From NCBI GenBank assembly GCA_012646845.1, contig GCA_012646845.1_4707.1: a stretch of 48,431 bases of DNA; one strand, 5' to 3'. Below, one piece after another: positions 2,076 to 28,116 of this stretch (position 1 is the first letter of the stretch; each line of letters opens with the position of its first letter). The stretch is from a phage. Made by a program: the position numbers and the translations under genes. The notes under the pieces were generated by a model. It made no database searches, was not told the origin of the DNA, and worked only from the letters and a program-made list of their open reading frames with translations.

Positions 2076-2540
2076 TTACTCTTTGGTGTTAGTTTCTTCT
2101 TCGTTTGGAGAATACTCCACGGTGTGGAATACACAGCCATCGACAAACTTGAGGGTTACGGTAATAGGGAAATCACACGGCATAGCAGACTTCTTAAATG
2201 CGTTTGAGGCAGCTTCAGACAACTGGAGTGCGGCATTAGTCACGCTTGTGTTGAATGGTAGTGTTATGTCGATAAGGATGCGGTGTTTGTAAACATGGAA
2301 GACAACGGTACTGTCAACATCTATACCACGAAACCGCATTGTCGGAATGTTCGTCACGATGGAATAGTATATCCCATCAATATCACTACTTCCCATCGAC
2401 CATTCATCATTTACGCATAGATTTTTCTTAAGGAATTCGAGGCTTCGAGTGACAGCCACGGCAGTAGGCGTGATGTAAGCGTCTTTATGCGTGTCGAAAA
2501 GTCTGTTGACGTTAGATTTGAATGAGTATTCTGCTGTCAT
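2076..2540 (-). CDS. hypothetical protein, tandem paralogue family
   Basis: ORF track; GAGGT SD before ATG; C-terminus DFPITVTLKFVDG...YSPNEEETN aligns with DMPVILTINGHDG...YDPDNENTEE of next gene. Confidence 0.65.
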   Translation of the reverse strand: MTAEYSFKSNVNRLFDTHKDAYITPTAVAVTRSLEFLKKNLCVNDEWSMGSSDIDGIYYSIVTNIPTMRFRGIDVDSTVVFHVYKHRILIDITLPFNTSVTNAALQLSEAASNAFKKSAMPCDFPITVTLKFVDGCVFHTVEYSPNEEETNTKE

Positions 2541-2606
2541 TATTCTACCTCAATGTTTAACCGACACGTGTCCCCACTTAACAAGGGACACGATATCGTT
2601 GATTAA

Positions 2607-3101
2607 TTATTCTTCTGTGTTTTCATTGTCAGGATCGTAGTGGAATTCGAACAGCCCTGAACCGTCATGTCCGTTGATTGTGAGTATAACGGGCATATCG
2701 AATCCTCGGACACGCGAATGAAAACACTGTGCTAATTTTAGTTTGGCGTATGCCGCTATTTCATTGACAGCAATACACGATTCACCTGTTATACTCAGTA
2801 TAACGTCGATACTAACAATGTTGTCGTGCAACGCAAAACGCCAACGATCGATACGAGTATTATCTTTAGCGGGTGTCTCGTTGACGAGATAGACTTTATC
2901 GTCAACTGACAAAGCAGGGCTCCAGCAACGTTCGTTTATTAAATTCGCTTGGAGTTTTAGTATCGTCTGATCGATAATATCCCAACACGTAACCAGCGTG
3001 GTGTCAGGCACTGAACAGAGAAGGGCGAGCACTTTATCCTTTATTTTAAGTGCTTCCGCAGAGCGTCCGCAAATACCATGCATTTCAACCTTCTTATCCA
3101 T
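2607..3101 (-). CDS. hypothetical protein, tandem paralogue family
   Basis: ORF track; start set to ATG at 3101 preceded by AGAGGTGA; paralogous to 2076..2540. Confidence 0.65.
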   Translation of the reverse strand: MDKKVEMHGICGRSAEALKIKDKVLALLCSVPDTTLVTCWDIIDQTILKLQANLINERCWSPALSVDDKVYLVNETPAKDNTRIDRWRFALHDNIVSIDVILSITGESCIAVNEIAAYAKLKLAQCFHSRVRGFDMPVILTINGHDGSGLFEFHYDPDNENTEE

Positions 3102-10991: not shown

Positions 10992-11501
10992 ATGGCGAGA
11001 TTTACCAGTTTGATTGGGTTGGATATTTGGGAAACACCGGCCGACGTTCGGGTTATTCCTGTTAACACCGTCGGTGTGATGGGACGTGGTCTTGCCAAGC
11101 AGGCAGCCGATCGTGTGCCCGGTCTTCTTGAAGCGTACCGTAAGCAATGTCAAGATGGGTTTAAGGTGGGCGAAGTCGTGTCGTATCAACACGGTGATAA
11201 CGATCAACTCACCTACGTGCTGTTTCCATCAAAATCGGATTGGCGTGAAAGAACACGACGCGAGTATATCGTTAACGGTTTACTGGCGTTGAAAGCGTGG
11301 TTATTGGAGCTTCAGTTCGAAAGAGACGGCTTCTCATACCACCGTCCGGCTGAACCGTTGATTGTCGCAATTCCTCCGGTTGGTTCTGGTTGCGGTAATA
11401 TCGGTTACGGACAATCCGAAACAATCCAGCCTCAGTGGGTACGCGCACAAATCAAACAGTATCTTGCCACCGTACCGAACGTTCATTTCTACTTGTTCTA
11501 A
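10992..11501 (+). CDS. macro-domain protein (ADP-ribose binding/hydrolase family)
   Basis: VIPVNTVGVMGRGLAKQ and IVAIPPVGSGCGNIGYG resemble the two conserved macro-domain glycine-rich loops; ATG at 10992 in ORF-track frame. Confidence 0.65.
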   Translation: MARFTSLIGLDIWETPADVRVIPVNTVGVMGRGLAKQAADRVPGLLEAYRKQCQDGFKVGEVVSYQHGDNDQLTYVLFPSKSDWRERTRREYIVNGLLALKAWLLELQFERDGFSYHRPAEPLIVAIPPVGSGCGNIGYGQSETIQPQWVRAQIKQYLATVPNVHFYLF

Positions 11502-11517
11502 TGCAGCGGTAACATAA

Positions 11518-11549
11518 CCCTCCTCCAACCCGTAAGGGAAGGAGGAGGG
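11518..11549. terminator. hairpin CCCTCCTCC...GGAGGAGGG with nested CCC-GTAA-GGG, between convergent genes
   Basis: perfect 9-bp inverted repeat read directly. Confidence 0.5.
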
Positions 11550-11566
11550 CTTATGCTGTTATGCTA

Positions 11567-11941
11567 TTAATGTTCGTTCCAGACGGCATCTTCCGGTGGA
11601 ACAATAGGATCTTTCTTCGGCATTGACGGCACTTCATGACGATGTTTACGGAACTGTCCGTCGATAACTTCACGAAGCCGGTACGCATCAACCCACGTTG
11701 ATTTATTGAACAGCTCCAACGTCACAGTTAATCGCGTTCTTGACATTGAATAGCTTTTCTTTGCAATCAAATCGGGATAATTCAGTTGAGCGAACCATGC
11801 CCGTATTTGTGCTTCGGTAAAAGCGATGCTGTAATAACTAAGTTTACCGTCATTAAAATCGTGCGCGTGGGTGTAACGTCCAGCGTAACGCCAAACAAGA
11901 TGCACATTCAGATCTATCCATGGTGGGGTGGTATCAGCCAT
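11567..11941 (-). CDS. hypothetical protein
   Basis: ORF track; GAGGGT SD. Confidence 0.6.
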   Translation of the reverse strand: MADTTPPWIDLNVHLVWRYAGRYTHAHDFNDGKLSYYSIAFTEAQIRAWFAQLNYPDLIAKKSYSMSRTRLTVTLELFNKSTWVDAYRLREVIDGQFRKHRHEVPSMPKKDPIVPPEDAVWNEH

Positions 11942-11950
11942 GCGTTACCC

Positions 11951-12520
11951 TCAACGATTCTTCATCACTTTACCCAGGCTTTCGATATTATCCCAAAAGC
12001 GATTTTTACTTGGCGCATCGCCAACGATAACCGACATCAAATCGCGACGTTCACGACTGATGATGCCCTGCGATTTCCAGATCACCATCGTCCAGCAAGC
12101 AGCCAGAACAAACAGATGGTTAATACTCGGTTTGGTTTGTGCGATGAACGCAAGCCATGCCCAGATACCGGTGTATACTACCGTCACTAAAAAGAGAGAG
12201 ATTGTTGCAACGACAACAACGAAGTTTTGGATGGCTGGCTGATTGGCGTTATCCTGAAAAGCGGTAAGATCAGGAAGATTACCTTCAACGGAACTCGTAT
12301 CATCGATTTCCAATTCTTCGATTTCTTTTCGTATGTCGGGAGCTAATCCGGCATCATCAAGATGCTTCTTTAACCGCTGAATACTTAATCGTTGTCCGAC
12401 AGGGATATTAATGTTGTCGTAACTATTAAGCGCATCAACCAGGGAGCGTCCGTCAACGAGAACCAAGCTCGCAGTACCCATCGTCTGCGGTTTTATTTTG
12501 TAAAGGTCTTTTACTTTCAT
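11951..12520 (-). CDS. hypothetical membrane protein
   Basis: ORF track; hydrophobic segments (VVVVATISLFLVTVVYTGIWAWLAFI). Confidence 0.6.
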   Translation of the reverse strand: MKVKDLYKIKPQTMGTASLVLVDGRSLVDALNSYDNINIPVGQRLSIQRLKKHLDDAGLAPDIRKEIEELEIDDTSSVEGNLPDLTAFQDNANQPAIQNFVVVVATISLFLVTVVYTGIWAWLAFIAQTKPSINHLFVLAACWTMVIWKSQGIISRERRDLMSVIVGDAPSKNRFWDNIESLGKVMKNR

Positions 12521-12541
12521 GTAGACACCACCTCCAACGTG

Positions 12542-15154
12542 TTATACGTCCGGCGTAAAATCAAAAGGAACGTCCGTACGAATGATATCATAACGTTTTC
12601 CTAAGAAATAGAACTCTTCGGGAACCAGACCGGGAACGATGCTATCGCCGATGAACTGTGGGTATGCCCAGATGTACTGAGTGAGTCCTTCGAACATATC
12701 CAGGTTATTTGCGTGGTTACCCATGATACGTTTCCAGAGTTCGCGTTTATACGGTGTTTTAACATCGAACCCATAAAGCGGTGCGAGGTCTTCACCAGGA
12801 ACAAATCCCAGGTAATAGTGGATCTGACTAACCGGGAAACCAAGCGTATCTCGCGGAATGGTGATCGCTTGCTCAGCCTTGGTGACATGCGTCTCAATAA
12901 TCCAGTCGTAGCACTCCGAATAGAACCGATCGAATTTCTCTGGATTATACCACGCTTTGGGAAGATTCAGTTTCTCCGTGAACGCGTTCGACATGATCGT
13001 CGGCAAGAACGGAAGAACGCCGGTTTTGATCTGTGTGTATTTCGATTTTACCCGATTGACTAGATTCCAGCAACTGTATCCTAATTGATCGTTGCAGAAC
13101 TCAACGTAGAGATCGTAATCCCCACCCGATAATGGATTATTAATATCGCCGATGTCTGCCGCATATTTGTTGGGGTATCGGTTATTGAAAGCCAGTTTGG
13201 TTTGGTAATCGTAAATGCACGGTTTATTGTTCTTCGTGTTAATCCACCACCAGGGTTCACCCACCTGCACACAAATGTCTTGGACATGCGGGTAGATGAT
13301 ATCAGCAAACGCGGTTAACACATCCCCTAACCACGCCATCGCGTGTTGGTTGCATGGCGACAACAACCAAGACGGCGGCGTATATCCGGTTGCTGCTATG
13401 TTTCCTTCCCAATCCTGCTGCGCCCACTCGAACGGGCATGCCGTACTCATCAATTCGTAACTTAAACTGATTGTAACAGAGAAATGGTGTTTTGCAGCGT
13501 ATGCGGCGAAAGCTTCATGCCATGCGATACAGGGTGGGTTGAGTACATCTGTGGTGTTCACCAGTAACTTACTCGCACTTGGTGTCCAGACAGTATCGTA
13601 GAAATGCGACATTCCAACATAGTGCACTAATTCATCTTGATATCCCGCATAAACCAGGTTCTCAAATACGCGTTCCGGCGTGATATTGTAATGGTCGTCA
13701 TAAGCGGTTATCGCACGAAGCTCGTGTGGTGTACATTGGTGACGATTAACCGTCATTTCCTGATACACCCCATCAATAGGAAGAATCTCGAGGGTTAAAC
13801 AGAGGTCGATCGGTGTTTCCAGGTAGGTCGTTTCTGTAGCACCTTCCTTATAATGTCGAGAACTCATGCTGAACATCAACGACGTGACCGATTCGAGTTC
13901 GATAGGTTCGTCAGCATAGAACCCCGCCATTGCGTCGTTGAAATCGATCGTTACGATTGCGCTTGTACCGTCTTCAGAGACGTCGGTGGCGTATCGGGTT
14001 AATGAGATATACTGACGGCTATCGTCTTTGTGTACGACGGTTAAAACCGGCGGGTTTTCGGTATCTGCAAAGTTCCGCTGGTCACCAGTAAACGTGATCT
14101 TGGCTTTAAAGATCAAACCGAGCAACGACGTCATGGGATCATACGCAACACAACCATGATCTAGCGTATCCGTTGTCCGCCATTCTATCCCTACCAACCC
14201 GTTAGCGGTATGGCATCGCATATACGCATTAAGTGTCATGTCTTCACTGACAACCGCGAAGTTCTCTGTAGATTGACCATTGATAATCCAATACATCGGT
14301 TGCCAGAGGTTACGCGTGCCTTTTGCGTAGCGGTAGGTTGGTGCACCTTTAGGGTTGCCGTTATTGAGATGGAATACAGCCGTACCTTGGTAATGATCGT
14401 TCGTGTTAATCGGAACACTGTACGCGTCGCCGAGGTCCGTACGTTCGACCTTCGTGACAGTTGCGTTTTCAAACAGCCCACGTAGTGTAGGAAGACCAAT
14501 GTCATCAGGCGCGTTTTCTCGGCGAATCGCGTCCGCGATGCGGTGGGCTAGGGCGGGGTAAATGGTCTCACCCTGCTGTAGGTTTGCAAGACCTACAAAG
14601 CGATCGGGGTTGATACCAGCAATCAATAACTCGACATCGCCCTTCGTTCTATCGTCATGGAGGTATTTCAGTCCAGTAAGATCAAGATGTTGAATTAACG
14701 ACAACAGATTGTACTTACGGTTTTCAACAGTCAGTGCAAGATCACCCGCCCAAACCAAACTTCCCTCATCCGCCGTTACTCTAACGGATTGGCGGCCTGT
14801 GGTGGACGTTGTTGTCGTTTTATTTAATTGTCCTTGTAGGAAGTCGGTTGCGAGGTCAAAGGCAACGCCGTAACGGTCAGCGACCGCCTGCATGATTTCA
14901 CGTAACTGGGTATCTTCTTCAATGATGATCTTGACGGGTATTCCCAAGAACGCCTTGGCGAGGTCTCGCTTAACCATCGAGACGAATACGGATTTGTAAT
15001 ATCGGCCTCCATCTTTCCCTTTAAAAAGAATGGAGGTTGTTTCGGGTGACGATAGAACACGTGCAAATACAACATCGTCGAAAGTAAGAGAAAGTCCGTT
15101 TTTCTCGTTGGTTAATCTTAGTATTTCATTTTGCGCGGTTTCATGTAACTTCAT
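12542..15154 (-). CDS. tail fibre/tailspike-like protein with shared N-terminal anchor module
   Basis: 870 aa; N-terminal ~170 aa homologous to 21881..23635, 21196..21723 and 27286..28116 (RDLAKAFLGIP; NKTTTTSTTGRQSV...LTGLKYLHDDRTKG). Confidence 0.7.
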   Translation of the reverse strand: MKLHETAQNEILRLTNEKNGLSLTFDDVVFARVLSSPETTSILFKGKDGGRYYKSVFVSMVKRDLAKAFLGIPVKIIIEEDTQLREIMQAVADRYGVAFDLATDFLQGQLNKTTTTSTTGRQSVRVTADEGSLVWAGDLALTVENRKYNLLSLIQHLDLTGLKYLHDDRTKGDVELLIAGINPDRFVGLANLQQGETIYPALAHRIADAIRRENAPDDIGLPTLRGLFENATVTKVERTDLGDAYSVPINTNDHYQGTAVFHLNNGNPKGAPTYRYAKGTRNLWQPMYWIINGQSTENFAVVSEDMTLNAYMRCHTANGLVGIEWRTTDTLDHGCVAYDPMTSLLGLIFKAKITFTGDQRNFADTENPPVLTVVHKDDSRQYISLTRYATDVSEDGTSAIVTIDFNDAMAGFYADEPIELESVTSLMFSMSSRHYKEGATETTYLETPIDLCLTLEILPIDGVYQEMTVNRHQCTPHELRAITAYDDHYNITPERVFENLVYAGYQDELVHYVGMSHFYDTVWTPSASKLLVNTTDVLNPPCIAWHEAFAAYAAKHHFSVTISLSYELMSTACPFEWAQQDWEGNIAATGYTPPSWLLSPCNQHAMAWLGDVLTAFADIIYPHVQDICVQVGEPWWWINTKNNKPCIYDYQTKLAFNNRYPNKYAADIGDINNPLSGGDYDLYVEFCNDQLGYSCWNLVNRVKSKYTQIKTGVLPFLPTIMSNAFTEKLNLPKAWYNPEKFDRFYSECYDWIIETHVTKAEQAITIPRDTLGFPVSQIHYYLGFVPGEDLAPLYGFDVKTPYKRELWKRIMGNHANNLDMFEGLTQYIWAYPQFIGDSIVPGLVPEEFYFLGKRYDIIRTDVPFDFTPDV

Positions 15155-15176
15155 TGAAAACCTCAGCCCTTTAGAA

Positions 15177-15818
15177 TTAGATGTACTGCTTACCGCCCAC
15201 GAAGGAAGTTAGCCAGTTCCCACTGACAAGCTGTGATACCCAGCCAGGCACTGCCCTGCCATTCTGGCTCATGACATTACCACACCAGCCAGGGAATCCG
15301 GGACGGATATAATAGAAAGTTAAATTGTAGAGATGGCAATTCCATACCGCAACGTTATGTTTACCAGAAACCGCTTTAAAGACAAACGCAACGGGTAAAG
15401 GCGACGATAACAATTCGGTCACAGGGACGGCCGACCAGTTCGCATTCGCATTCCATGGTTGCCAGGTATGGCTACGCGAGTCGCAAAATACGTTACCGTT
15501 GTTACCGCGCCCACCCGCATGCCACCACAGCGACGGACTCATGTTCTTAAGTGAGGTAAATTGCTGTGGTGGAATATTAGGAATAATAACAGGGTTGGTA
15601 CCTTGCCCATGTTTCTTTTCTTTTGCGTTTACATACCCACTTATCGATTCGAGGTATTTGACACCAGGATAATTGTTCTGGACTTGTGTCGCAATATCAC
15701 GGACATCAAACGTCCAGCAGATCATGGTGTTGTAGTAAGCATCGGTGTTGTCGTACCAAGCGTTACCATCTTGTAAACGTGCGCCACTATTCGGTGTTTT
15801 ATCTGTGCTTATAGCCAT
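15177..15818 (-). CDS. hypothetical protein, paralogue sharing C-terminal module with 15925..16590
   Basis: C-terminus GFPGWCGNVMSQNGRAVPGWVSQLVSGNWLTSFVGGKQY nearly identical to neighbour; ~100-bp near-identical DNA. Confidence 0.65.
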   Translation of the reverse strand: MAISTDKTPNSGARLQDGNAWYDNTDAYYNTMICWTFDVRDIATQVQNNYPGVKYLESISGYVNAKEKKHGQGTNPVIIPNIPPQQFTSLKNMSPSLWWHAGGRGNNGNVFCDSRSHTWQPWNANANWSAVPVTELLSSPLPVAFVFKAVSGKHNVAVWNCHLYNLTFYYIRPGFPGWCGNVMSQNGRAVPGWVSQLVSGNWLTSFVGGKQYI

Positions 15819-15924
15819 GTTATTGTCCTATACTACGATGATTGAGATATCGAATGTCGGACGCTTGGTGCCGTCTGGTAGTACATACAGAAACACCCAC
15901 AGATAAAACAATAACTCCCATCAA

Positions 15925-16590
15925 TTAAATTGATGTTAGATACTGCTTACCTCCGACAAACGATGTCAACCAGTTCCCACTGACAAGCTGTGATACCCAG
16001 CCAGGCACTGCCCTGCCATTCTGGCTCATCACGTTACCGGCCCATCCCGGAAAACCAGGTCGGAAAATATATACTTGAATATGTGTTAAAGCGTTATCAT
16101 TACCTCCACCAACAGCAACATTACGACGTCCGGATGATGGGAAATATTCTTTTAAGAACAGGGGATCGTTTGCCAATAAAGAAGCAGGCCAAGGATTAGC
16201 GGATGCGTCAACATCGAATTCGGTCCATCGCCATTTGCGCCCAGTATCGAACCAGGTTGACGTACCACCGCCACGCACCGCAAGATTGCGTGCGTCACGG
16301 GCACTGTATATTGATTCGATGTTGCGCCACCCACCTTTTGCGACGTTTGCCGCATAGCAAATCGCATTACCACCATTCTTCTTTTCGTAAACGGTTCGTT
16401 TGATATGAACACGGTCGATAAACGCTTCACCGTATTTGTTGACGAGTGTTTGCGCGATATCACGAAGATCGTGCATATGAAAGGCGATGTCTTCGTTGTG
16501 GAACCACGTTGTCGGGTTCCAAACGGTGCCGTTTGGTTCGGCACACATCGATCTGATGTTGTTGCGTTGATTAATCGCGATAAAGCCCAT
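15925..16590 (-). CDS. hypothetical protein, paralogue of 15177..15818
   Basis: start set to ATG 16590 (GAGGTGGACC SD), aligns with N-terminus of paralogue. Confidence 0.6.
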   Translation of the reverse strand: MGFIAINQRNNIRSMCAEPNGTVWNPTTWFHNEDIAFHMHDLRDIAQTLVNKYGEAFIDRVHIKRTVYEKKNGGNAICYAANVAKGGWRNIESIYSARDARNLAVRGGGTSTWFDTGRKWRWTEFDVDASANPWPASLLANDPLFLKEYFPSSGRRNVAVGGGNDNALTHIQVYIFRPGFPGWAGNVMSQNGRAVPGWVSQLVSGNWLTSFVGGKQYLTSI

Positions 16591-16653
16591 GGTCCACCTC
16601 GTTCCTGTTCTCGAAGGAAATTTCATACGATGACGCCATAACAGCTCCCCCAT

Positions 16654-16695
16654 CCTCCCTTCCCTTACGGGTTGGGAGGATGTAAGGGAAGGAGG
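16654..16695 (-). terminator. long hairpin CCTCCCTTCCCTTAC...GTAAGGGAAGGAGG downstream of lipoprotein gene
   Basis: ~14-bp inverted repeat read directly. Confidence 0.5.
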
Positions 16696-16705
16696 AACTA
16701 CTTAA

Positions 16706-17209
16706 TTACTCGCTGACAACCTCAACGGAATTGGGATCGGCGATCAGCGCACGGTCGGTAGAACAATTGAAGAAGACCATGCCAACACCATCGCCGTTCG
16801 AGTTCAGGGTTGAACTTACGTAAGACAATGCTGGTTTATTCATACGGTAGAAGCGTTCGTTGGTGGTGGTATTGAACCCCAGATCAACGTAGTCTTTCAC
16901 CGTGGTGTACAACTGTGTGGACTCGAAAACGGTTACCGGAGAGTCAACGGTAAACTGACTACCTTCGTCCACTACCAGAACTTTATCGTTCCAGATTTCA
17001 GTGGTTGAGAACTTCGGTTTCCAGTGTTCGAATTCCTGGGTTGCTCCCCAGCAGGAATACACAGCGAGATCGCTGTTCTTCTCAACAGGTTTTAACCCCA
17101 CCAGTTGTGTCAGACCTTTATCCAGATTCGGTAAGCCTTCCAGTGTAGCACACCCACCCAGAGAAAGTACCATCAACATACCGAGAATAATCGCGCAAAG
17201 TTTCTTCAT
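16706..17209 (-). CDS. lipoprotein (signal peptide with lipobox LGGC)
   Basis: MKKLCAIILGMLMVLSLGGCATLEG; AAGGAAA SD. Confidence 0.75.
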   Translation of the reverse strand: MKKLCAIILGMLMVLSLGGCATLEGLPNLDKGLTQLVGLKPVEKNSDLAVYSCWGATQEFEHWKPKFSTTEIWNDKVLVVDEGSQFTVDSPVTVFESTQLYTTVKDYVDLGFNTTTNERFYRMNKPALSYVSSTLNSNGDGVGMVFFNCSTDRALIADPNSVEVVSE

Positions 17210-17253
17210 CGTCGGATTTCCTTATGTGTTAACGGAAGTGATTTCCATAGTAA

Positions 17254-17670
17254 TTACACAGTTTTAGGAAATTCCGGCCAATCGATATTTGGCGCGGCGT
17301 CGGTATCGATAGCCGTCACCTCGTCAATGTAATCCAAAACAGCATTAAGTTGGGCTGTTTCTTCCGGAGTCAGTTTTCGCCCGGCCCGTAATTTTAACTG
17401 AATAAGATCAATGGAAGCCAGCGCAGAGTCAATCAGAGATTTTTTCATCTGTTCTGCCTCGGCGACGAGATCTTCGTGTTGCCGCTCGGGTTCCGGAGGT
17501 GCGGTAAACTCACCATTTGAGTATAACCAACCTATTCCGGGCGACACAGCTCCCGTATCGCTAATGCCGACCAACTGTTGATTGTCAGATACATTGAGTT
17601 CTGCTTCGCCATCGTAAACGATCGTGTTTACTACCACCCCATTTTCAATAACAGCGTATGATGTACTCAT
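17254..17670 (-). CDS. tfa: tail fibre assembly chaperone (lambda Tfa-like)
   Basis: C-terminus AEAEQMKKSL...LDYIDEVTAIDTDAAPNIDWPEFP matches lambda Tfa C-terminal domain; ATG overlaps fibre stop (TAATG). Confidence 0.8.
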   Translation of the reverse strand: MSTSYAVIENGVVVNTIVYDGEAELNVSDNQQLVGISDTGAVSPGIGWLYSNGEFTAPPEPERQHEDLVAEAEQMKKSLIDSALASIDLIQLKLRAGRKLTPEETAQLNAVLDYIDEVTAIDTDAAPNIDWPEFPKTV

Positions 17671-20600
17671 TACATAAACTCCTCGATGATGCAAATCCCG
17701 TCAGCGCCACGCCCACCACGCATAACGGTTCCAGTGTAACCGTTATCGTAAGCGCCGCCACCGCCCGAACCTCGTGCGAGGCCGTTTGACCCGCCACCAA
17801 CAGCTGCGCGACCACCGCCACCCCAATATGACGCACCCCCACCACCACATACAGGAAATGCGCCAGCTTGACCGTCATCACCATCACCACCTGAAATGCG
17901 TATATCCCCGGTACTAGGTGTACCACCACCCCCACCACCAGTGTTTGTGACGGTTGTTTTTCCTGCGCCTTGCCCACCGGGAGCAGTTAGTAGGGATGCA
18001 AATTTACTATCCCCGCCCCTGTTTCCAATTGTTGCCCCGGAACCACCAGTGCCACCAGAACCAATTACGACAGAATAACTAGTAGCTGTTACCGCTATAA
18101 CCGAAATTACTGTTCCACCGGCCCCACCGCCAGCACCAAAAAACGTTTCGCTGTTGGAAAAAGCCTGGCAACCACCGCCGCCGCCTCCACCACCGGTTAA
18201 TATTACTCTAATCCGTTTTGTTCCTTGTGTTGGGGTGTACGTCCCTGACGATGTGAAAACACGCGTATTCAGTAAACGTCCGACATATCCGCTAGAATCG
18301 GCTAAACCAAGATCTTTAGCTGCTAACGTTATATTAGCTGTACCGTCAAACGGTTTACCGTTAATCGTGCGCGCGGTCTGCAACTTCGTGGCCGTTGCTG
18401 CGTTTCCTGACGTATTCTGGTTTCCCGCGGCGTTAACACCTGGTAGATTGATGTTCGCACTACCGTCGAAAGATACCCCACCAATGGTGCGGGCTGTTTT
18501 CAGTTTTGTCGCCGTGGCAGCATTACCGGTTGTGTCTTGGTTACCGGTGGTGTTTACCCCAGGCAGGTTGATATTGGCTGTTCCGTTAAATGAAACACCG
18601 CCAATCGTCCTTGCTGTTTGCAGCCTCGTTGCGGTTGCTGCGTTCCCCGTGGTGTTTTGGTTACCCGTTGCATTCACGCCCGGGATACTATCCTTAGATG
18701 TGTAGATCTGTGCCCATTCCGACCAGTTAGAATCGGCTGCATCACGACGTGAACGTAAATAAGCCGGAGCGTGTGTGCCCGAGGTACCTGACCAACCAAT
18801 GAGGATTTCACCTTCACCGGCCGATGAAGCACCTTTGAGGTGAATAACGTTACCATAGGCGGTTGGGTAGCCGTTACTGTACGCTTCATACATCTGGATA
18901 CCGGTATTACTACCTTGGGTCGCATTAGCTAACGCGGTAACACGACCTTTGGAGGCGAGAGCGGTAATACTGAAGCTAATGTCCTTAGTACCGTCAAAGG
19001 CGACCCCATTAATCTTCCGTGCTGTTTGGAGTTTCGTGGCAGTAGCCGCGTTACCAGAGGTACTCTGATTACCTGCTTTGTTCACGCCAGGCAAATCAAT
19101 GTTGGCTGTTCCATCAAAGGACACACCCCCTATGGTTCTCGCTGTCTGGAGTTTTGTTGCTGAGCCAGCGTTTCCGGAAGTACTTTGATTACCTGCCGCG
19201 TTGACGCCCGGTAGGTTAATGCTAGCAGAACCATCAAAAGAAACTCCACCTATCGTGATCGGTGTTTTCAATTTCGTGGCTGTCGCAGCGTTACCGGTTG
19301 TATTTTGATTGCCTGTCGCATTAACGCCCGGTAATGCAATATCCGCTGTTCCGTCAAAGGCAACGCCGCCGATTTTACGGGCGGTTTGTAGCTTGGTTGC
19401 ACTAGCAGCGTTACCACTGGTATTCTGGGTGCCAGCTTTGTTAACACCCGGGAGATCGATGTTAGCAGAACCATCGAAGCTGACGCCACCTATCGTTCTT
19501 GCAGTAGCGAGTTTAGCTGCTGTGGCTGCATTGTTACCCACTTTCAGCCAATCATCCCATGGACCATCCTGGCCGTTCCACGATGCCGTTAAACTACGTA
19601 CGTAAATATTGCCAGTACGTACAGTGTAACGTTGCGTTCCACCGAATTGTCCAGCAGGGAGCACTTCAAGGTAACCTGCGGCATTTGCTTCAGGGAAATT
19701 GTGGGCGACGTCCGCATTCGTCGTTATTGGTTTAGACCAAATACCCACAGACGCTTCAACCGGACCGTAAGTATTCAGATTTGCGTCGGTGGGGAGCTGT
19801 CCTCGAAAACGTTGGAATTGTGTCGCCGATAACCCCAACGTTGTTTGCATGCTTTCAATGCTGGATTGCTGAAGTAACGTCCGTGCTGTCGACGTAATCA
19901 CGGTAAGCGCAACTTTATTAACACCGGTGAAATACGGGAGTTTGTCTGCTGATGTCGCTAAACCTGAAAAGGCGGTCAGTAATGCGTTAAGGGGCTGCTT
20001 CCCAGCTAACGCATTTGTTACCGTCGTTGCGAAATTAGGATCGCTTCCTATAGCTCGAGCCAGCTTATTAAGCGTATTTAGCGTCGCTGGTGACGAGTCG
20101 ATCAGCGCCGTGATCGCACGCATCACAAATTCCGTGTTGGCTATCTGTCGACTGCTATTGTTAACTGCTGCGGTGGGCGCTGCTGGCGTACCAGTGAATA
20201 CAGGGCTATTAAGATCCGCCTTGAGGGCGATGAGACGTTTAAGCGCTTCAACATCAACTTTCAGGTTTTCCCATCCGATGAGAGAACCACCACTGCTGGC
20301 ATGGTAACGGTTGTACCAGAAGTCACCGTTAACGCCTAAAAAGAATATTCCCTTCTCTTCGTTTTGTGGACCGGAACTATTTCGTGACGAGCTGATGTAA
20401 TTGATTTCAATAAGACCAGTAAACGTCACTCCTGGGATTATTTTGTTGTCTCCAGCTGACTGTGATACTTGGTAAATCCCCGGGGTTGCGGCTTTAACCC
20501 ATGTTAAGAATTCTGTTACTCCAGCGGTACCGCTAAAATTCTTAACGTCGGTAAGTATCGCCCCATAACCGAACATACCGGGTAGAGCCACTCGTCCGCT

Positions 20601-21188
20601 GGTACGGTCACGAATATCTGTCGCAACAACAGGCAATTGTTTACGAACGGCATTAACCGCTTTAGGCGTGGCCGATTTTGTCTCGTCATCGCTATCGGTT
20701 TCATTACTTAGAATAGTTAAACCGCGTGTAGCAGTAGTTGCATCAGGAAGAAATGCGTTATCCAACACCTTAAGCTGTATTGCACTCGTATTACTAACAA
20801 CGACATGCACCTGACAGTTAAGAACGCTGGTTGCGCCTTCGGCAGGCGTAGGCTTATATCTTTCTGGTGCACTGCAGACGGCAATCAGAACACCTTTATC
20901 GTCGTACAGACCGATCTCACGTACCCAGAACCCACCTTGACCAGCAGGAATAATACCCTCAACGACAATCCTGGTTGTACTATCGCCATCCGCATGGATA
21001 TTAGAAACTTCCCCACGATAAACTTCGTGAACAAGTGCTGTTTGGCTGGCGGTCGGGGTTGGTGTCGAGCCGTTACCATCACCAACGGCAAAGTGTGTGA
21101 TTTTTAGTTTCTCACCGTCGGGAAGTAACGCAGCGGTGATACGTTCTGCTCCTTTATCGGTAACTACCGTTTTATATGCTGTACTCAT
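17670..21188 (-). CDS. long tail fibre protein: P2 gpH-like N-terminus, two blocks of ~38-aa fibre repeats, Gly-rich C-terminal tip
   Basis: N-term MSTAYKTVVTDKGAERITAA...HFAVGDGNG; repeats GNAATATKLxTARTIGGVSFDGxANIxLPGVN; C-terminal poly-Gly motifs; start set to ATG 21188. Confidence 0.85.
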   Translation of the reverse strand: MSTAYKTVVTDKGAERITAALLPDGEKLKITHFAVGDGNGSTPTPTASQTALVHEVYRGEVSNIHADGDSTTRIVVEGIIPAGQGGFWVREIGLYDDKGVLIAVCSAPERYKPTPAEGATSVLNCQVHVVVSNTSAIQLKVLDNAFLPDATTATRGLTILSNETDSDDETKSATPKAVNAVRKQLPVVATDIRDRTSGRVALPGMFGYGAILTDVKNFSGTAGVTEFLTWVKAATPGIYQVSQSAGDNKIIPGVTFTGLIEINYISSSRNSSGPQNEEKGIFFLGVNGDFWYNRYHASSGGSLIGWENLKVDVEALKRLIALKADLNSPVFTGTPAAPTAAVNNSSRQIANTEFVMRAITALIDSSPATLNTLNKLARAIGSDPNFATTVTNALAGKQPLNALLTAFSGLATSADKLPYFTGVNKVALTVITSTARTLLQQSSIESMQTTLGLSATQFQRFRGQLPTDANLNTYGPVEASVGIWSKPITTNADVAHNFPEANAAGYLEVLPAGQFGGTQRYTVRTGNIYVRSLTASWNGQDGPWDDWLKVGNNAATAAKLATARTIGGVSFDGSANIDLPGVNKAGTQNTSGNAASATKLQTARKIGGVAFDGTADIALPGVNATGNQNTTGNAATATKLKTPITIGGVSFDGSASINLPGVNAAGNQSTSGNAGSATKLQTARTIGGVSFDGTANIDLPGVNKAGNQSTSGNAATATKLQTARKINGVAFDGTKDISFSITALASKGRVTALANATQGSNTGIQMYEAYSNGYPTAYGNVIHLKGASSAGEGEILIGWSGTSGTHAPAYLRSRRDAADSNWSEWAQIYTSKDSIPGVNATGNQNTTGNAATATRLQTARTIGGVSFNGTANINLPGVNTTGNQDTTGNAATATKLKTARTIGGVSFDGSANINLPGVNAAGNQNTSGNAATATKLQTARTINGKPFDGTANITLAAKDLGLADSSGYVGRLLNTRVFTSSGTYTPTQGTKRIRVILTGGGGGGGGCQAFSNSETFFGAGGGAGGTVISVIAVTATSYSVVIGSGGTGGSGATIGNRGGDSKFASLLTAPGGQGAGKTTVTNTGGGGGGTPSTGDIRISGGDGDDGQAGAFPVCGGGGASYWGGGGRAAVGGGSNGLARGSGGGGAYDNGYTGTVMRGGRGADGICIIEEFM
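18290..18700 (-). repeat. coding tandem repeats (~114 bp) within tail fibre gene, block 2
   Basis: imperfect direct repeats visible in DNA and protein. Confidence 0.6.
18950..19520 (-). repeat. coding tandem repeats (~114 bp) within tail fibre gene, block 1
   Basis: imperfect direct repeats visible in DNA and protein. Confidence 0.6.
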
Positions 21189-21195
21189 GGTGTTT

Positions 21196-21723
21196 TTATC
21201 CTGGATAAATAGTGATGATATCACCAATGACCGTTGTGGCACCGGCGTAAAGATGAGCCGGAGATACATCGTGTTGGTTTGTCACGGTAAGATCTAATCG
21301 ACCACGCCAAACCATGGAGGTATTCGCGATGGGGATAGAAATCTTTTTGGATATATCGTCACGAAAATCAATAACAGTGGCAAGGGTAACTGCATCAAAG
21401 TCAACGTCGGGATCAAAGACGAACCCGTATTGATCTGAAATCGCCCGAATAATCGCGTGTATAGTTGTTGTCTTAACAGACTCTAAAACGATTTTTATTG
21501 GTATTCCTAGAAATGCCTTCGCAATATCGCGTCGAGCGTAAACGATAAAACTTTCACCGTTCCACCTTGTTCCTTCATTTGCTGTGACGATCACTTTTGC
21601 CCTGTTAGCACCAGAACTTCCATCCAAGACTAATGTAAGATCGGAGCTGTTGAATACGCTACTGTTACGTCTGTTTATCAACGACGTCAGTTCGTCTTTC
21701 CATGGCGGGTAAAGTGAACACAT
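21196..21723 (-). CDS. short protein consisting of the shared fibre N-terminal module
   Basis: YARRDIAKAFLGIPIKIV; start set to ATG 21723 (GGAGGAGGG SD). Confidence 0.65.
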   Translation of the reverse strand: MCSLYPPWKDELTSLINRRNSSVFNSSDLTLVLDGSSGANRAKVIVTANEGTRWNGESFIVYARRDIAKAFLGIPIKIVLESVKTTTIHAIIRAISDQYGFVFDPDVDFDAVTLATVIDFRDDISKKISIPIANTSMVWRGRLDLTVTNQHDVSPAHLYAGATTVIGDIITIYPG

Positions 21724-21836
21724 ATGTGCACCCTCCTCCAACATAACCAGATTAATTATAAATTTCTTAAACGTGGAACACGATTCGAGATAAACGTAAA
21801 CGGTCTTAACGACCGCATAAAATTCCGCGCATATTA

Positions 21837-21880: not shown

Positions 21881-23635
21881 TTATGCTGCTACATATCCAG
21901 GCCAACGTTCTCTTGGCCAGTTTGTTGCGCCCTGTCCAACGTTGTCCTTACCAGAAGTTACGTTACTCACATCCCATCCACTCAGATCCTGATTGAACGC
22001 GGTGTTTTCGCGCATCATGAGATCGATCTTACGTAGCGAACGGGTATTCCAGCCGGAAATGTCTTGGTTGAATGCCGTATTGTAGGCAAACATGTTAGAC
22101 ACGCTTTGTAATTTTGAGGTGTTCCAACCACTGATGTCGCTATTGAACGACATACTTGAGAACATGCTGCTCGCATCAACAAGACTGTCAGTTTTCCAAT
22201 TAACCAGTTTATCACCATCAAGTGCATCGCTGCTGCTGAACATAAAACTCATGTCGTTAACTTTGGACACATCCCATTTATCCAACCCGTTACCCACGAA
22301 CGCAGGACAGGACGAGAACATATAACTCATATTAGTAACCCGACTCACATTCCATTTACTGAAGTCGAGGTTAAGTTTCTGACACCCTAAGAAGGTTTTA
22401 CACATGTTGGTGATACGACTAACATCCCACTCTTGGATGTTGGGGTCGTTAAGCGTCGTTAAATAGTTGAACAATGTCGCTAACGACGTCCATTTCTCTG
22501 GAATCCGGTTTGGTACCGTACGAAGCGATGCGAGGTTGTTGGTTGACGGAGAGCAGAACATACCGTTATCCCAATTTACGATCTCCGTAATTTTGGACCC
22601 TTTGATCGTCTGAGTGACGTTACCATCTTTCACCATACCTGTAGCGACGATGGTATATTCACCAGTGTCCGCATAATCGTGGGTGTAGGAGTTGTTGCTT
22701 GAGGTCTCCGTTACTTTATTCCCATCACCCCAATCGATATTGACCTTATCCCATCCACCTAGGTAGAACTGTACTTTGCCTCCGGTGGCTTTTAGGATAT
22801 ATTTACCCCCATTGTCGGTATAATAACAGACAACCATTGAACCGTACAGATTACCTATCTGCCAATCATCCTTTTGCGATATTGCGATTTGCGCCGCACC
22901 ACGCTGTACGAAGAGTACCGTACGATTCTCGGCAGTCTGTAATGTGGTTATTGCCTGAGCTTTATCGTCCTCGCTAATTTCACCAGATCCCACCAAAGCG
23001 CTTAACATCCTTTCGAAGTATTCGATCGGTAACTCAGCTCCAACAGACTTATCAACAGACTGTACAGCAAGATCGCCCAATGCTGCAGTGGTAGCCAACG
23101 CCAATGAACCCTTGGTCATATCTGTTTCTTGGATGTAATGCAGTCCCGTAAGCTGGTACGCTTGAATAATAGTAATCAGGTTCAGCGTATCGTTAACGAC
23201 CTGTACCTGTAAATGCCCGGACCATACATAGCTGCTTTCAGCAATCGGTAGCTCGACCGATTGAATACCTGATGTTTCAAAGGTGATCTTCTTATTAAGA
23301 TCGGTTTCCAGGAAATCAACCGCGAGGTCGAAATTCATGCCGTACTTTTCAGCGATGGAATCTACGATATTCTTGAAAGCAACATCTGTGCTTACGATAA
23401 AACGTAACGGAATTCCCGTAAACGCTTTAGCGATGTCTCGACGAACATACGTAAGCGATTGTTCGAAGAAATAGGGACTGTTATCTCCAGGCTTGATGGT
23501 TACCTGACACGCTTCAGGATATTCAGCTGGGATGAACGATTCGAATTTAACGTCGGATTCCTTCAACGAAAGCTTGTTATTCCGGTTCACTAACGCCAGA
23601 AGATCGGCTTTCCATCCGGGGTAAACTGTAGACAT
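21881..23635 (-). CDS. tailspike/fibre-like protein: shared N-terminal module plus C-terminal DUF285-type repeats
   Basis: N-term YVRRDIAKAFTGIP; C-terminal repeats WDVSRITNMCKTF / WNVSRVTNMSYMFSSC / WDVSKVNDMSFMFSSS / WNTSKLQSVSNMFAYNTAFNQDISGWNT. Confidence 0.7.
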   Translation of the reverse strand: MSTVYPGWKADLLALVNRNNKLSLKESDVKFESFIPAEYPEACQVTIKPGDNSPYFFEQSLTYVRRDIAKAFTGIPLRFIVSTDVAFKNIVDSIAEKYGMNFDLAVDFLETDLNKKITFETSGIQSVELPIAESSYVWSGHLQVQVVNDTLNLITIIQAYQLTGLHYIQETDMTKGSLALATTAALGDLAVQSVDKSVGAELPIEYFERMLSALVGSGEISEDDKAQAITTLQTAENRTVLFVQRGAAQIAISQKDDWQIGNLYGSMVVCYYTDNGGKYILKATGGKVQFYLGGWDKVNIDWGDGNKVTETSSNNSYTHDYADTGEYTIVATGMVKDGNVTQTIKGSKITEIVNWDNGMFCSPSTNNLASLRTVPNRIPEKWTSLATLFNYLTTLNDPNIQEWDVSRITNMCKTFLGCQKLNLDFSKWNVSRVTNMSYMFSSCPAFVGNGLDKWDVSKVNDMSFMFSSSDALDGDKLVNWKTDSLVDASSMFSSMSFNSDISGWNTSKLQSVSNMFAYNTAFNQDISGWNTRSLRKIDLMMRENTAFNQDLSGWDVSNVTSGKDNVGQGATNWPRERWPGYVAA

Positions 23636-23652
23636 AAGCACTCCAAAGTTCA

Positions 23653-23669
23653 TGGGGCGGTAACCGCCC
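23653..23669 (-). other. short perfect hairpin GGGGCGG-TAA-CCGCCCC between large structural gene and downstream fibre gene
   Basis: read directly; lies just upstream of the start region of gene 21881..23635. Confidence 0.4.
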
Positions 23670-27285: not shown

Positions 27286-28116
27286 TTAATCGTAACTGAA
27301 ATAAAGTTTGCTGCTGACGCCGCTATCGGAATGAGGTTTTAATACCAGAACAGAGCTTCCGAACGACGGAAGTATCGGAACATTTAAATCGTTTGCGTCG
27401 GCAACTTTTCCATTATAAACGACACTGGCTGTTGTGATGAGTTCCCAAGCTAAGGCATAACTCATTGAAATCAGTGAAGAGGCTAAACGGAACGCACTGT
27501 ATCCTTCAGGAGAATCTCCAACCAACATCGAACGTATCGCATCTTGCGGCGGTAAATTTAGCTTGATGCCGTAGGTGCTGAATGTGTGGAAATCCCCTTG
27601 TTTACTATCTTCCGGATAATAAGAGGTTAGTGGTTCTCGTACCGTAATCAGCTCGCTAATATCAGTACTTACCGCTTTTCGTACGAGGAATTGAAACGTA
27701 CCGTACCACGATGCTGAGGCATCAGAACGAATAGGAACAGATACGGTTTTCTCGTCACTTTCAAATTTAATCTGTGATGCTAGCGCTGAAGAATCAAAGA
27801 TCGTTAAATCGATCTTCAACCCATACTTCTTAAACAGCTGCGTTAAGCAGTCTGCTATAGTCGTCATATCAGCAACGACAATAAAAGGTTGGTGTTTGAT
27901 AAAGAGCTTATTAATGTCTCGACGTTGAAGATAAACCTGCACGGGGTCTTCGATATAGTAAGTCGATTGTGATGTGGGGACTATAGAAAGGCGTAACCGA
28001 CCTGATGCACCATACCAGGCTGGCGTTAGCGTAATGTCTGACGGGGATAATGGATGCTGGAGATCGGTGTTTATTTTAGATAACACTTCCTCTTGCCATG
28101 ATGCTTCAGGATACAT
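27286..28116 (-). CDS. protein with diverged copy of the shared fibre N-terminal module
   Basis: YLQRRDINKLFIKHQPFIVV...KKYGLKIDL aligns with RRDIAKAF-GIP module of the other three. Confidence 0.6.
   Translation of the reverse strand: MYPEASWQEEVLSKINTDLQHPLSPSDITLTPAWYGASGRLRLSIVPTSQSTYYIEDPVQVYLQRRDINKLFIKHQPFIVVADMTTIADCLTQLFKKYGLKIDLTIFDSSALASQIKFESDEKTVSVPIRSDASASWYGTFQFLVRKAVSTDISELITVREPLTSYYPEDSKQGDFHTFSTYGIKLNLPPQDAIRSMLVGDSPEGYSAFRLASSLISMSYALAWELITTASVVYNGKVADANDLNVPILPSFGSSVLVLKPHSDSGVSSKLYFSYD

Follow-up and report, generated by a model that had tools for sequence, protein, structure and literature searches.

Tandem gp087-family genes in a Goslar-like jumbo phage: a conserved C-terminal segment with short-tract gene conversion and N-domain exchange

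The locus and its two paralogues

The DNA analysed here (the window, a stretch of 48,431 nt) derives from a Goslar-like jumbo phage of the Chimalliviridae. Over bases 12000-21500 the sole matching phage record is that of Escherichia phage vB_EcoM_Goslar (Goslar), a nucleus-forming member of this family, at approximately 90% DNA identity. The minus-strand genes of this region follow the order tail fibre, Caudo_TAP protein, gp088-like protein, paralogue A, paralogue B and gp086-like protein, after which come two small proteins, the counterparts of gp085 and gp084 (Table 1). The tail fibre and its assembly protein lie upstream of A and B and share with them the gene cluster and the strand (17254..21269). 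The 870-aa gp086-like protein is predicted to be a host-recognition fibre protein; Goslar gp86 has been described as combining DUF7941, carbohydrate-binding and glycoside-hydrolase domains (bioRxiv 10.64898/2026.04.21.720040).

Table 1. Features of the A/B locus, with positions in the window
Feature	Coordinates	Strand	Remarks
Tail fibre, P1 S-like	17670-21269	minus	Pfam Phage_tail_fib, Phage_fiber_2, Gly_rich_2; PHROG tail-fibre families
Tail-fibre assembly protein, 146 aa	17254-17694	minus	Pfam Caudo_TAP (PF02413)
gp088-like protein, 167 aa	16706..17209	minus	lipoprotein-type signal, sequence MKKLCAIILGMLMVLSLGGC; phrog_9559
GC-rich hairpin between gp088-like gene and A	16651..16682	minus	inverted repeat I4; RNA fold -33.5 kcal/mol, z -3.8
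Conserved upstream segment	16596..16648	minus	87-91% matches in Goslar, L006, L007, L008, L016, L018, L019
Paralogue A, 221 aa	15925..16590	minus	CBM-like jelly roll (residues 1-177), then conserved segment; missing in Goslar
Conserved segment of A, PGFPGWAGNV...GGKQY, 40 codons	15940..16059	minus	5' edge 16059/16060 is the N-domain exchange breakpoint
Conversion tract in A (probable recipient)	15970..16029	minus	60 nt identical to B; encodes MSQNGRAVPGWVSQLVSGNW
Paralogue B, 213 aa	15177..15818	minus	orthologue of Goslar gp087 (YP_009820772); architecture as in A
Conserved segment of B, PGFPGWCGNV...GGKQY, 40 codons	15183..15302	minus	102/120 nt identical to A segment
Conversion tract in B (probable donor)	15213..15272	minus	exact 60-mer
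gp086-like downstream neighbour, 870 aa	12542..15154	minus	DUF7941, NCTSP N-terminal domain, TIM barrel; PF25613, PF23844, PF23845

The hairpin that separates the gp088-like gene from A is the inverted version of another hairpin at 11520-11551, and its counterpart is annotated in the Goslar record as a putative terminator. The conserved segment upstream of A is retained in all relatives, where it directly adjoins either the indel that contains A or a swapped N-domain cassette (see below). A 13-nt perfect inverted repeat over the start of B (15795-15807/15898-15910) gave an RNA structure z score of -0.8, which is not significant.

The start of A was placed at 16590, since homologues have MGFI as their N-terminus, and since the ATG at this position has a Shine-Dalgarno sequence, GAGG, 6 nt before it. 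A longer version of A, given by the mechanical open reading frame that extends to 16653, was rejected; its ATG abuts a purine run without spacing.

The first-pass annotation had described A and B as adjacent paralogues, and this description stands: both minus-strand reading frames exist, and the proteins are 39% identical overall (BLASTP, E = 1e-35). Their N-terminal domains (170-176 residues) have diverged to 24% identity (41/168), while the C-terminal segments are near-identical, with 40 of the final 42 residues (RPGFPGW..GGKQY[LI]) in common. The shared module is therefore as similar as had been claimed, but its length is approximately 40-42 residues rather than 45. B is 95.3% identical to Goslar gp087 (E = 3e-126), and A matches the same protein with 38% identity over 86% of the length (E = 2e-25). 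The two genes are tandem members of the small, unannotated gp087 family. This family is uncharacterised: Goslar gp087 carries the annotation 'hypothetical protein', and the members in Goslar, PCH45 and SPLA10 are without described function.

Gene conversion and N-domain exchange among relatives

The DNA of A and B contains a direct repeat (15184-15314 and 15941-16071) with 84% identity over 131 nt, within which a 105-nt stretch is 89.5% identical. This had been noted from the sequence as about 100 bp of almost identical DNA; the repeat is indeed strong, but it really consists of a perfect 60-nt core between flanks that are saturated at synonymous sites. The two genes share no longer exact stretch than this core. 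Within the 120-nt module, all 18 differences between A and B sit in the two 30-nt flanks (10 and 8), which encode the same residues in both genes except for one Ala/Cys. Of the codons at which a synonymous difference is possible, 0/17 differ in the centre and 14/18 in the flanks; in the control genome L005, which has both genes, the corresponding counts are 11/15 and 13/17. When the 18 observed differences were placed randomly on the 53 positions that are variable among relatives, an identical run of at least 60 nt had a permutation P of 1.5e-5.

For comparison, 17 related loci were collected from phage records, protein-indexed assemblies, IMG/VR and metagenomes. Two copies are present in nine genomes. 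Seven of these have A and B (the window, L005, L010, L011, L012, L013 and L015), and the other two (L006 and L016) have B together with C, a gene with a third kind of N-domain. Five genomes, including Goslar, have B only (the others being L007, L008, L018 and L019). The more distant L004 has only an A-like gene, and is without gp086 and the P1-like fibre. Relatives thus carry one or two copies, and since the two-copy arrangement is found in nine independent assemblies, a duplication artefact of assembly is not the explanation for it.

The pattern of differences in the 5' flank, centre and 3' flank of the module is 10/0/8 between A and B of the window, and 10/16/8 between A and B of L005. Comparing each gene with its orthologue, the flanks differ at only 2 and 4 positions between the two A genes and at 2 and 1 between the two B genes. 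In every case the flanks cluster according to gene type. Genes of one type differ there at 1-6 positions; between A or C and B there are 16-19 differences among close relatives, and up to 25 against the A-like gene of the distant L004. The 60-nt centre is homogenised only in the window and in L010, while in the other seven two-copy genomes the copies differ at 13-16 positions; between orthologues, the centre differs at 8-17. L010 is an independent metagenome contig with 97.9% identity to 4.8 kb of the window. Its A and B genes share an 80-nt identical run, and both copies carry a GTA>ATA (V>I) change that is not in any other sequence compared. The exact 60-mer of the window had no match in the viral and metagenome contig collections searched. 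The grouping of the centre by genome and of the flanks by gene type, together with a derived mutation present in both copies, indicates intragenomic gene conversion. The suggestion that the module was recently homogenised is thus borne out: a tract of up to 60 nt has undergone lineage-specific, non-reciprocal conversion between A and B.

B is the probable donor, since the tract is nearest to B-type centres and gives A an arginine and a valine of the B type. The tract of the window differs at 3 positions from B of L007 and at 8 from B of L005, and at 13-14 from the A and C types (13 from A of L005). At the two residues concerned, the other A- and C-type copies have lysine in 7/8 and alanine in 6/8. 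The direction was probably from B into A, as judged by comparing nearest neighbours, although the region is itself a mosaic. The centre of Goslar B is 3 nt from the C type and 16 nt from other B types, Goslar now being without A or C, and the B genes of L007 and L010 have A-like 5' flanks. Across the phage population, the 120 bp of the segment contain other, independent patches of exchange, and conversion is recurrent and patchy.

The N-terminal domains are exchanged at defined positions. L006 and L016 are collinear with the window (~91.5-91.9% identity) downstream from 16059/16060, through B and gp086. This breakpoint is the first codon of the A segment. Collinearity resumes upstream from 16596, and the different N-domain of type C lies between. 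Relative to Goslar, the presence of A amounts to a ~755-bp indel (15832 to 16587). In the B-only genomes, the segment at 16596-16648 abuts the region just before B (15832/15833), so that the 5' boundary of the N-domain swap is also that of the A indel. The 5' edge of the conserved segment and the 16596-16648 segment act as homology arms, either for replacement of the N-domain (A/C) or for loss or gain of the A gene. Loss or inactivation of a copy is seen in the B-only genomes, in the one A-only genome and in L006, where B starts with GTG and is interrupted by a TGG>TGA nonsense mutation; one gene of the pair can thus decay. We consider the conversion and cassette-exchange part of our explanation to be highly probable.

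Other origins of the 60-nt identity are far less so. A functional nucleotide element (an RNA structure, or a regulatory or recombination site) would account for perfect identity over 17 codons capable of synonymous change. However, such an element should not tolerate the differences listed above between copies in the seven other genomes (13-16) and between orthologues (8-17), and the exact 60-mer was found nowhere in the viral and metagenome contig collections; as the 60 nt are not conserved in other relatives, an element at the nucleotide level is for practical purposes excluded. An artefact of assembly or polishing, with the repeat collapsed, cross-corrected or mis-assembled in tandem, has a precedent of sorts in the short relative contig L012, in which a junction at the repeat is probably chimeric. 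It is nevertheless very unlikely: two copies occur in eight other independent assemblies, the flanks stay type-specific on both sides, and L010, assembled independently, has the homogenised centre too, in its case with a tract of another length and a private mutation that both copies share. The repeat spacing of 757 bp, which is close to the size of the indel with respect to Goslar, could also point to a recent tandem duplication, after which the N-terminal parts diverged very fast and the 3' end was left as an unchanged remnant. N-domains that are 24% identical speak against this, as does the fact that A-, B- and C-type genes each form a lineage of their own that is conserved from genome to genome; the near-saturation of synonymous sites in the flanks (14/18 codons) effectively excludes a recent event, and we regard it as very improbable.

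The conserved segment and the predicted fold

No other part of the gp087 family is as strongly conserved as this segment, which is rich in Gly, Pro and Trp. Its invariant or near-invariant columns, F-P-G..P-G..S-Q..G-x-W-L, are found family-wide (14 members, A and B included), both in single-copy genomes and in distant PCH45-like and SPLA10-like members that are only 22-26% identical overall. The family is small, with 11 representatives among 1.84 billion proteins in a profile search, and is confined to enterobacterial chimalliviruses. When the segment was sought across the window with an HMM of the module and a motif regular expression, in six-frame open reading frames, it was found only in A and B; it is therefore not a motif common to DUF7941 or fibre proteins. 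The segment of B contains a Chi-like sequence, GCTGGTGT, which departs from the E. coli Chi site at a single position.

The first-pass annotation had proposed that the shared module is maintained by gene conversion. This does not hold, because the segment is conserved in single-copy genomes and in the distant PCH45 and SPLA10, and because most two-copy genomes differ at 13-16 of the 60 central nucleotides and yet encode nearly the same peptide. The peptide is maintained by purifying selection throughout the family, with conversion as an occasional overlay.

Goslar gp087, PCH45 YP_011108444 and SPLA10 WNT47125 resemble A and B in having the segment and in lying downstream of a tail-fibre gene, a location that was found for family members in the window, Goslar, L005 and PCH45. 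Goslar, PCH45 and SPLA10 have one copy each, whereas the window has two. Some family members (316-370 aa) carry a further domain after the segment; in the PCH45-type proteins this is an extra C-terminal domain of ~140 aa, which A and B lack. The gene immediately upstream of the family member in PCH45 has a Peptidase_S74 fibre chaperone domain. A search for a partner common to the neighbourhoods of PCH45 and the window gave nothing: the 576-aa protein showed no similarity to the 590-aa one, nor the 820-aa protein to the 870-aa one.

The AlphaFold2 models of A and B agree with each other (pLDDT 79.5 and 81.7, respectively). In both, residues 1 to ~175 form a confident beta-sandwich with a few helices. 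This is followed by a low-confidence excursion (residues 180-211 of A, 178-206 of B), which spans the conversion tract, and then by a confident last strand that packs back into the sandwich. The low pLDDT in the segment may just reflect the shallow alignments (6 and 13 sequences). It had been suggested that the module is a tail. A free tail is not supported: the models have the last strand inside the jelly roll, and the long family members continue with a further domain.

The predicted jelly rolls of A and B resemble solved carbohydrate-binding modules (CBMs), a likeness at the level of the fold and of predicted models only. Among these are the chondroitin-sulfate-binding 8wab and the alginate-binding 7vbo, with 7-10% sequence identity to A and B; for no CBM does the identity exceed 10%. 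The jelly roll is a generic fold; a search of BFVD returned only the Goslar and PCH45 homologues and then weak, generic jelly rolls. A CBM-like fold in a predicted model does not establish membership of a CBM family, and by sequence A and B fall in no curated CBM family: neither matches a Pfam family at E <= 0.01 or any PHROG, and a profile search of PDB sequences gave no match even at E <= 10. CBMs are normally appended to enzymes. A and B differ from this usual arrangement in being stand-alone proteins with a conserved tail. The description of the two proteins as adhesin-like fits their predicted CBM-like jelly rolls and their position in a tail-fibre and host-recognition cluster.

Possible role of A and B in the virion

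Mass spectrometry of the Goslar virion lists gp087 with 4 peptides, corresponding to ~19 copies per virion (range 13-30), although the text of the preprint does not discuss this protein (10.64898/2026.04.21.720040). In the same table, the gp090 tail fibre is present at ~43 copies, the gp089 Tfa at 52, gp088 at ~740 and gp086 at 4.5, and thymidylate synthase at ~20 (10.64898/2026.04.21.720040). Since the copy level of gp087 is that of thymidylate synthase, a non-structural contaminant, its association with the virion is suggested by these data rather than proven. The authors were unable to assign the peripheral baseplate and tail fibres in the cryo-EM maps of Goslar, and they propose that carbohydrate-binding domains are anchored at the peripheral baseplate by DUF7941 proteins, gp86 among them (10.64898/2026.04.21.720040).

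The best explanation as a whole, to which we assign a probability of roughly 60%, is that A and B are a tandem of gp087-family genes, subject to conversion and cassette exchange, that encode different heads on a constant interface. The jelly rolls would be interchangeable glycan-binding heads. In the models, the segment leaves the fold for ~30 residues and comes back as its last beta-strand; it would be the invariable interface through which both kinds of head attach to a single conserved virion site, at the peripheral baseplate or the fibre apparatus. With the same interface on both heads, a phage that has A and B would display two specificities. Selection on the shared interface would keep 60-120 bp similar enough for homologous exchange, and such exchange would occasionally homogenise the two copies and, population-wide, shuffle the heads. 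Docking on the virion is plausible, yet it is the more tentative part of this explanation, and we would give it somewhat less than even odds. More tentative again, and on balance doubtful, is the idea that the segment is a universal plug, by which small CBM-like heads fit one conserved socket in the chimallivirus baseplate or fibre, with the DNA of the plug serving as a recombination handle. If this were true, phages with A and B or with C and B would show two heads at once, which would broaden host recognition, and the locus would be a second system for exchanging adhesins, one that has no relation to T-even gp38 and is peculiar to nucleus-forming jumbo phages.

Two other readings of the segment have to be weighed against docking. 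The segment, rich in tryptophan, phenylalanine and tyrosine, could itself be a ligand-binding loop that offers an aromatic platform to a conserved glycan, the body of the protein varying for other reasons. It contains three Trp, two Phe and one Tyr, and both of its ends lie on the jelly roll. CBM binding sites typically have aromatic platforms, and the segment is kept across phages of E. coli, Salmonella and Serratia, which could share an envelope glycan. Against this, an identical loop on two heads offers no obvious gain from keeping both genes, the further domain that long members place straight after the segment makes it look like a connector, and the loop is modelled with low confidence; we consider this reading unlikely. 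Less likely still is that A and B are non-structural chaperones or adaptors for gp086 or the tail fibre, with the segment binding the client and the traces in the virion being carry-over. Their place between the tail-fibre/Tfa pair and gp086 would suit such a function, as would the low abundance of ~19 copies, near that of thymidylate synthase. However, neither protein has similarity to Caudo_TAP or to another chaperone family in Pfam or PHROG, L004 retains its A-like gene though gp086 and the P1-like fibre are absent, and a CBM-like fold would be unusual in a chaperone.

As a phenomenon, gene conversion with modular exchange in a phage host-range locus is of a known type, and the present case is a fairly ordinary example of it. 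It is, however, clean and replicated, and it occurs in a jumbo phage that replicates its DNA inside a protein shell; the short tract and the exchange cassettes indicate that homologous recombination in the shell works on homologies of ~60-120 bp. Host recognition by chimalliviruses is poorly understood, with the peripheral baseplate and fibres of both Goslar and PhiKZ unassigned in cryo-EM maps, and the locus provides a candidate component of it, namely a stand-alone CBM-like family with a constant interface segment. The natural variants (A and B, C and B, B only, A only, and the B pseudogene) form a series that might be set against host range. The segment and the upstream arm also offer phage engineers natural junctions at which heads can be swapped. 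The main value of the locus, which is of moderate interest, would lie in this lead to a host-recognition component and in these junctions.

The exchange pattern recalls that of the gp38 adhesins in T2/T6-type phages, whose specificity is swapped by exchanges that fall in or close to conserved glycine-rich motifs (Trojet et al. 2011, PMC3157838; Tetart et al. 1998, cited there). Like A and B, T-even gp38 is a small accessory protein of the fibre locus with a constant part and a specificity part, and a similar pattern recurs at the edge and in the centre of the A/B segment. The likeness is in recombination behaviour only: A and B have no PHROG or Pfam match that would relate them to gp38, and no fold relationship to it. 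The arrangement is also reversed, since gp38 has an N-terminal attachment part and a C-terminal polyglycine (GRM/HVS) specificity domain, whereas in A and B the N-terminal part is variable and the C-terminal part constant. In addition, gp38 is a single-copy gene, while A and B are in tandem and convert each other. Tail-fibre assembly proteins are no closer, as PF02413 matches the neighbouring 146-aa protein but not A or B.

The DUF7941 'fibre cloud' proteins of chimalliviruses (Goslar gp22, gp23 and gp86) belong to the same gene neighbourhood as A and B, with gp086 directly adjacent. PF25613 matches the gp086-like and gp091-like proteins and other neighbours, but neither A nor B. Oligomerisation of the DUF7941 proteins has been predicted to occur through a disordered stretch that docks on a globular domain (bioRxiv 10.64898/2026.04.21.720040). 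The logic proposed for them resembles that suggested here for A and B, in that a constant module would anchor variable carbohydrate-binding or hydrolase domains to the peripheral baseplate.

Fate of the paralogues in related genomes

The entire host-recognition cluster is highly variable between relatives (L004 3881-7269; L005 1546-4575). The L004 locus lacks the P1-like fibre, Tfa, the gp086 gene and B, the paralogue that is orthologous to Goslar gp087; in L005, the P1 S-like fibre and Tfa are replaced by a 1009-residue fibre carrying a Peptidase_S74 chaperone domain.

In genomes that contain B only, the segment (the conserved C-terminal stretch of the paralogues) includes patches of the type found in A, the second paralogue, and in C, the third N-domain type. 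Such patches are present in Goslar gp087 (L001 9178-9819) and in L007 (3941-4582). On sequence comparison, this implies either that these B genes were formerly in contact with an A/C-type gene, which was lost later, or that exchange took place during co-infection.

The stop codon of A is changed to a sense codon in some relatives (L005 5224-5991; protein P0001), where the reading frame continues to the start of B, adding 34 partly hydrophobic residues (..KLLFYLWVFLYVPP..) for a total of 255; this addition may be a genuine extension or no more than the result of losing the stop. In L006, a genome with C and B, the B copy (2441-3082) starts with GTG and is interrupted at residue 98 by a nonsense codon (TGG to TGA); one of the two paralogues appears from its sequence to be decaying. 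In the short metagenome contig L012 (2045-2858), the sequence switches inside the 3' end of the segment of B to inverted gp086 sequence, matching window 15137-14449 in reverse; this junction probably arose when the repeat was assembled chimerically.

Hairpins and promoters

The block A-B-gp086-gp085-gp084 is flanked on either side by very stable GC-rich hairpins, which represent a single element of ~32 nt in opposite orientations. The Goslar counterpart of hairpin 2 is annotated as a putative terminator; a T-run is absent from both hairpins. Sigma-70-like promoter matches are depleted in window 11400-17400: shuffled sequences predict 8.4 +/- 2.3 matches, and 1 was observed. This depletion would fit with transcription by RNA polymerases of the phage itself.

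Hairpins and DUF7941 proteins of the window
Feature	Position	Sequence	Basis or stability
GC-rich hairpin 1	16651-16682	CATCCTCCCAACCCGTAAGGGAAGGGAGGATG	z -3.8
GC-rich hairpin 2	11520-11551	CCCTCCTCCTTCCCTTACGGGTTGGAGGAGGG	z -7.0
DUF7941 protein	21196-21744		DUF7941 module
DUF7941 protein	21881-23653		DUF7941 module
DUF7941 protein	27286-28116		DUF7941 module
DUF7941 protein	12542-15154		DUF7941 module

Neighbouring predicted lipoprotein and DUF7941 proteins

The gp088-like protein encoded upstream of A (16706-17209, minus strand) begins with a typical lipoprotein signal that includes a lipobox (MKKLCAIILGMLMVLSLGG/C). In Goslar, its homologue gp088 is among the most abundant unassigned proteins of virion preparations, at ~740 copies (10.64898/2026.04.21.720040). 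The gp088-like protein could be a true virion lipoprotein; alternatively, it could be a receptor-masking lipoprotein, like Llp of T5, borne on co-purifying membrane vesicles. Genes for Llp-like lipoproteins are typically located beside receptor-binding genes.

The chimallivirus-specific DUF7941 module is present in at least four proteins of this part of the window, one of which also features DUF285 repeats and one a TIM-barrel domain. These proteins match the "fibre cloud" family proposed for Goslar (10.64898/2026.04.21.720040).
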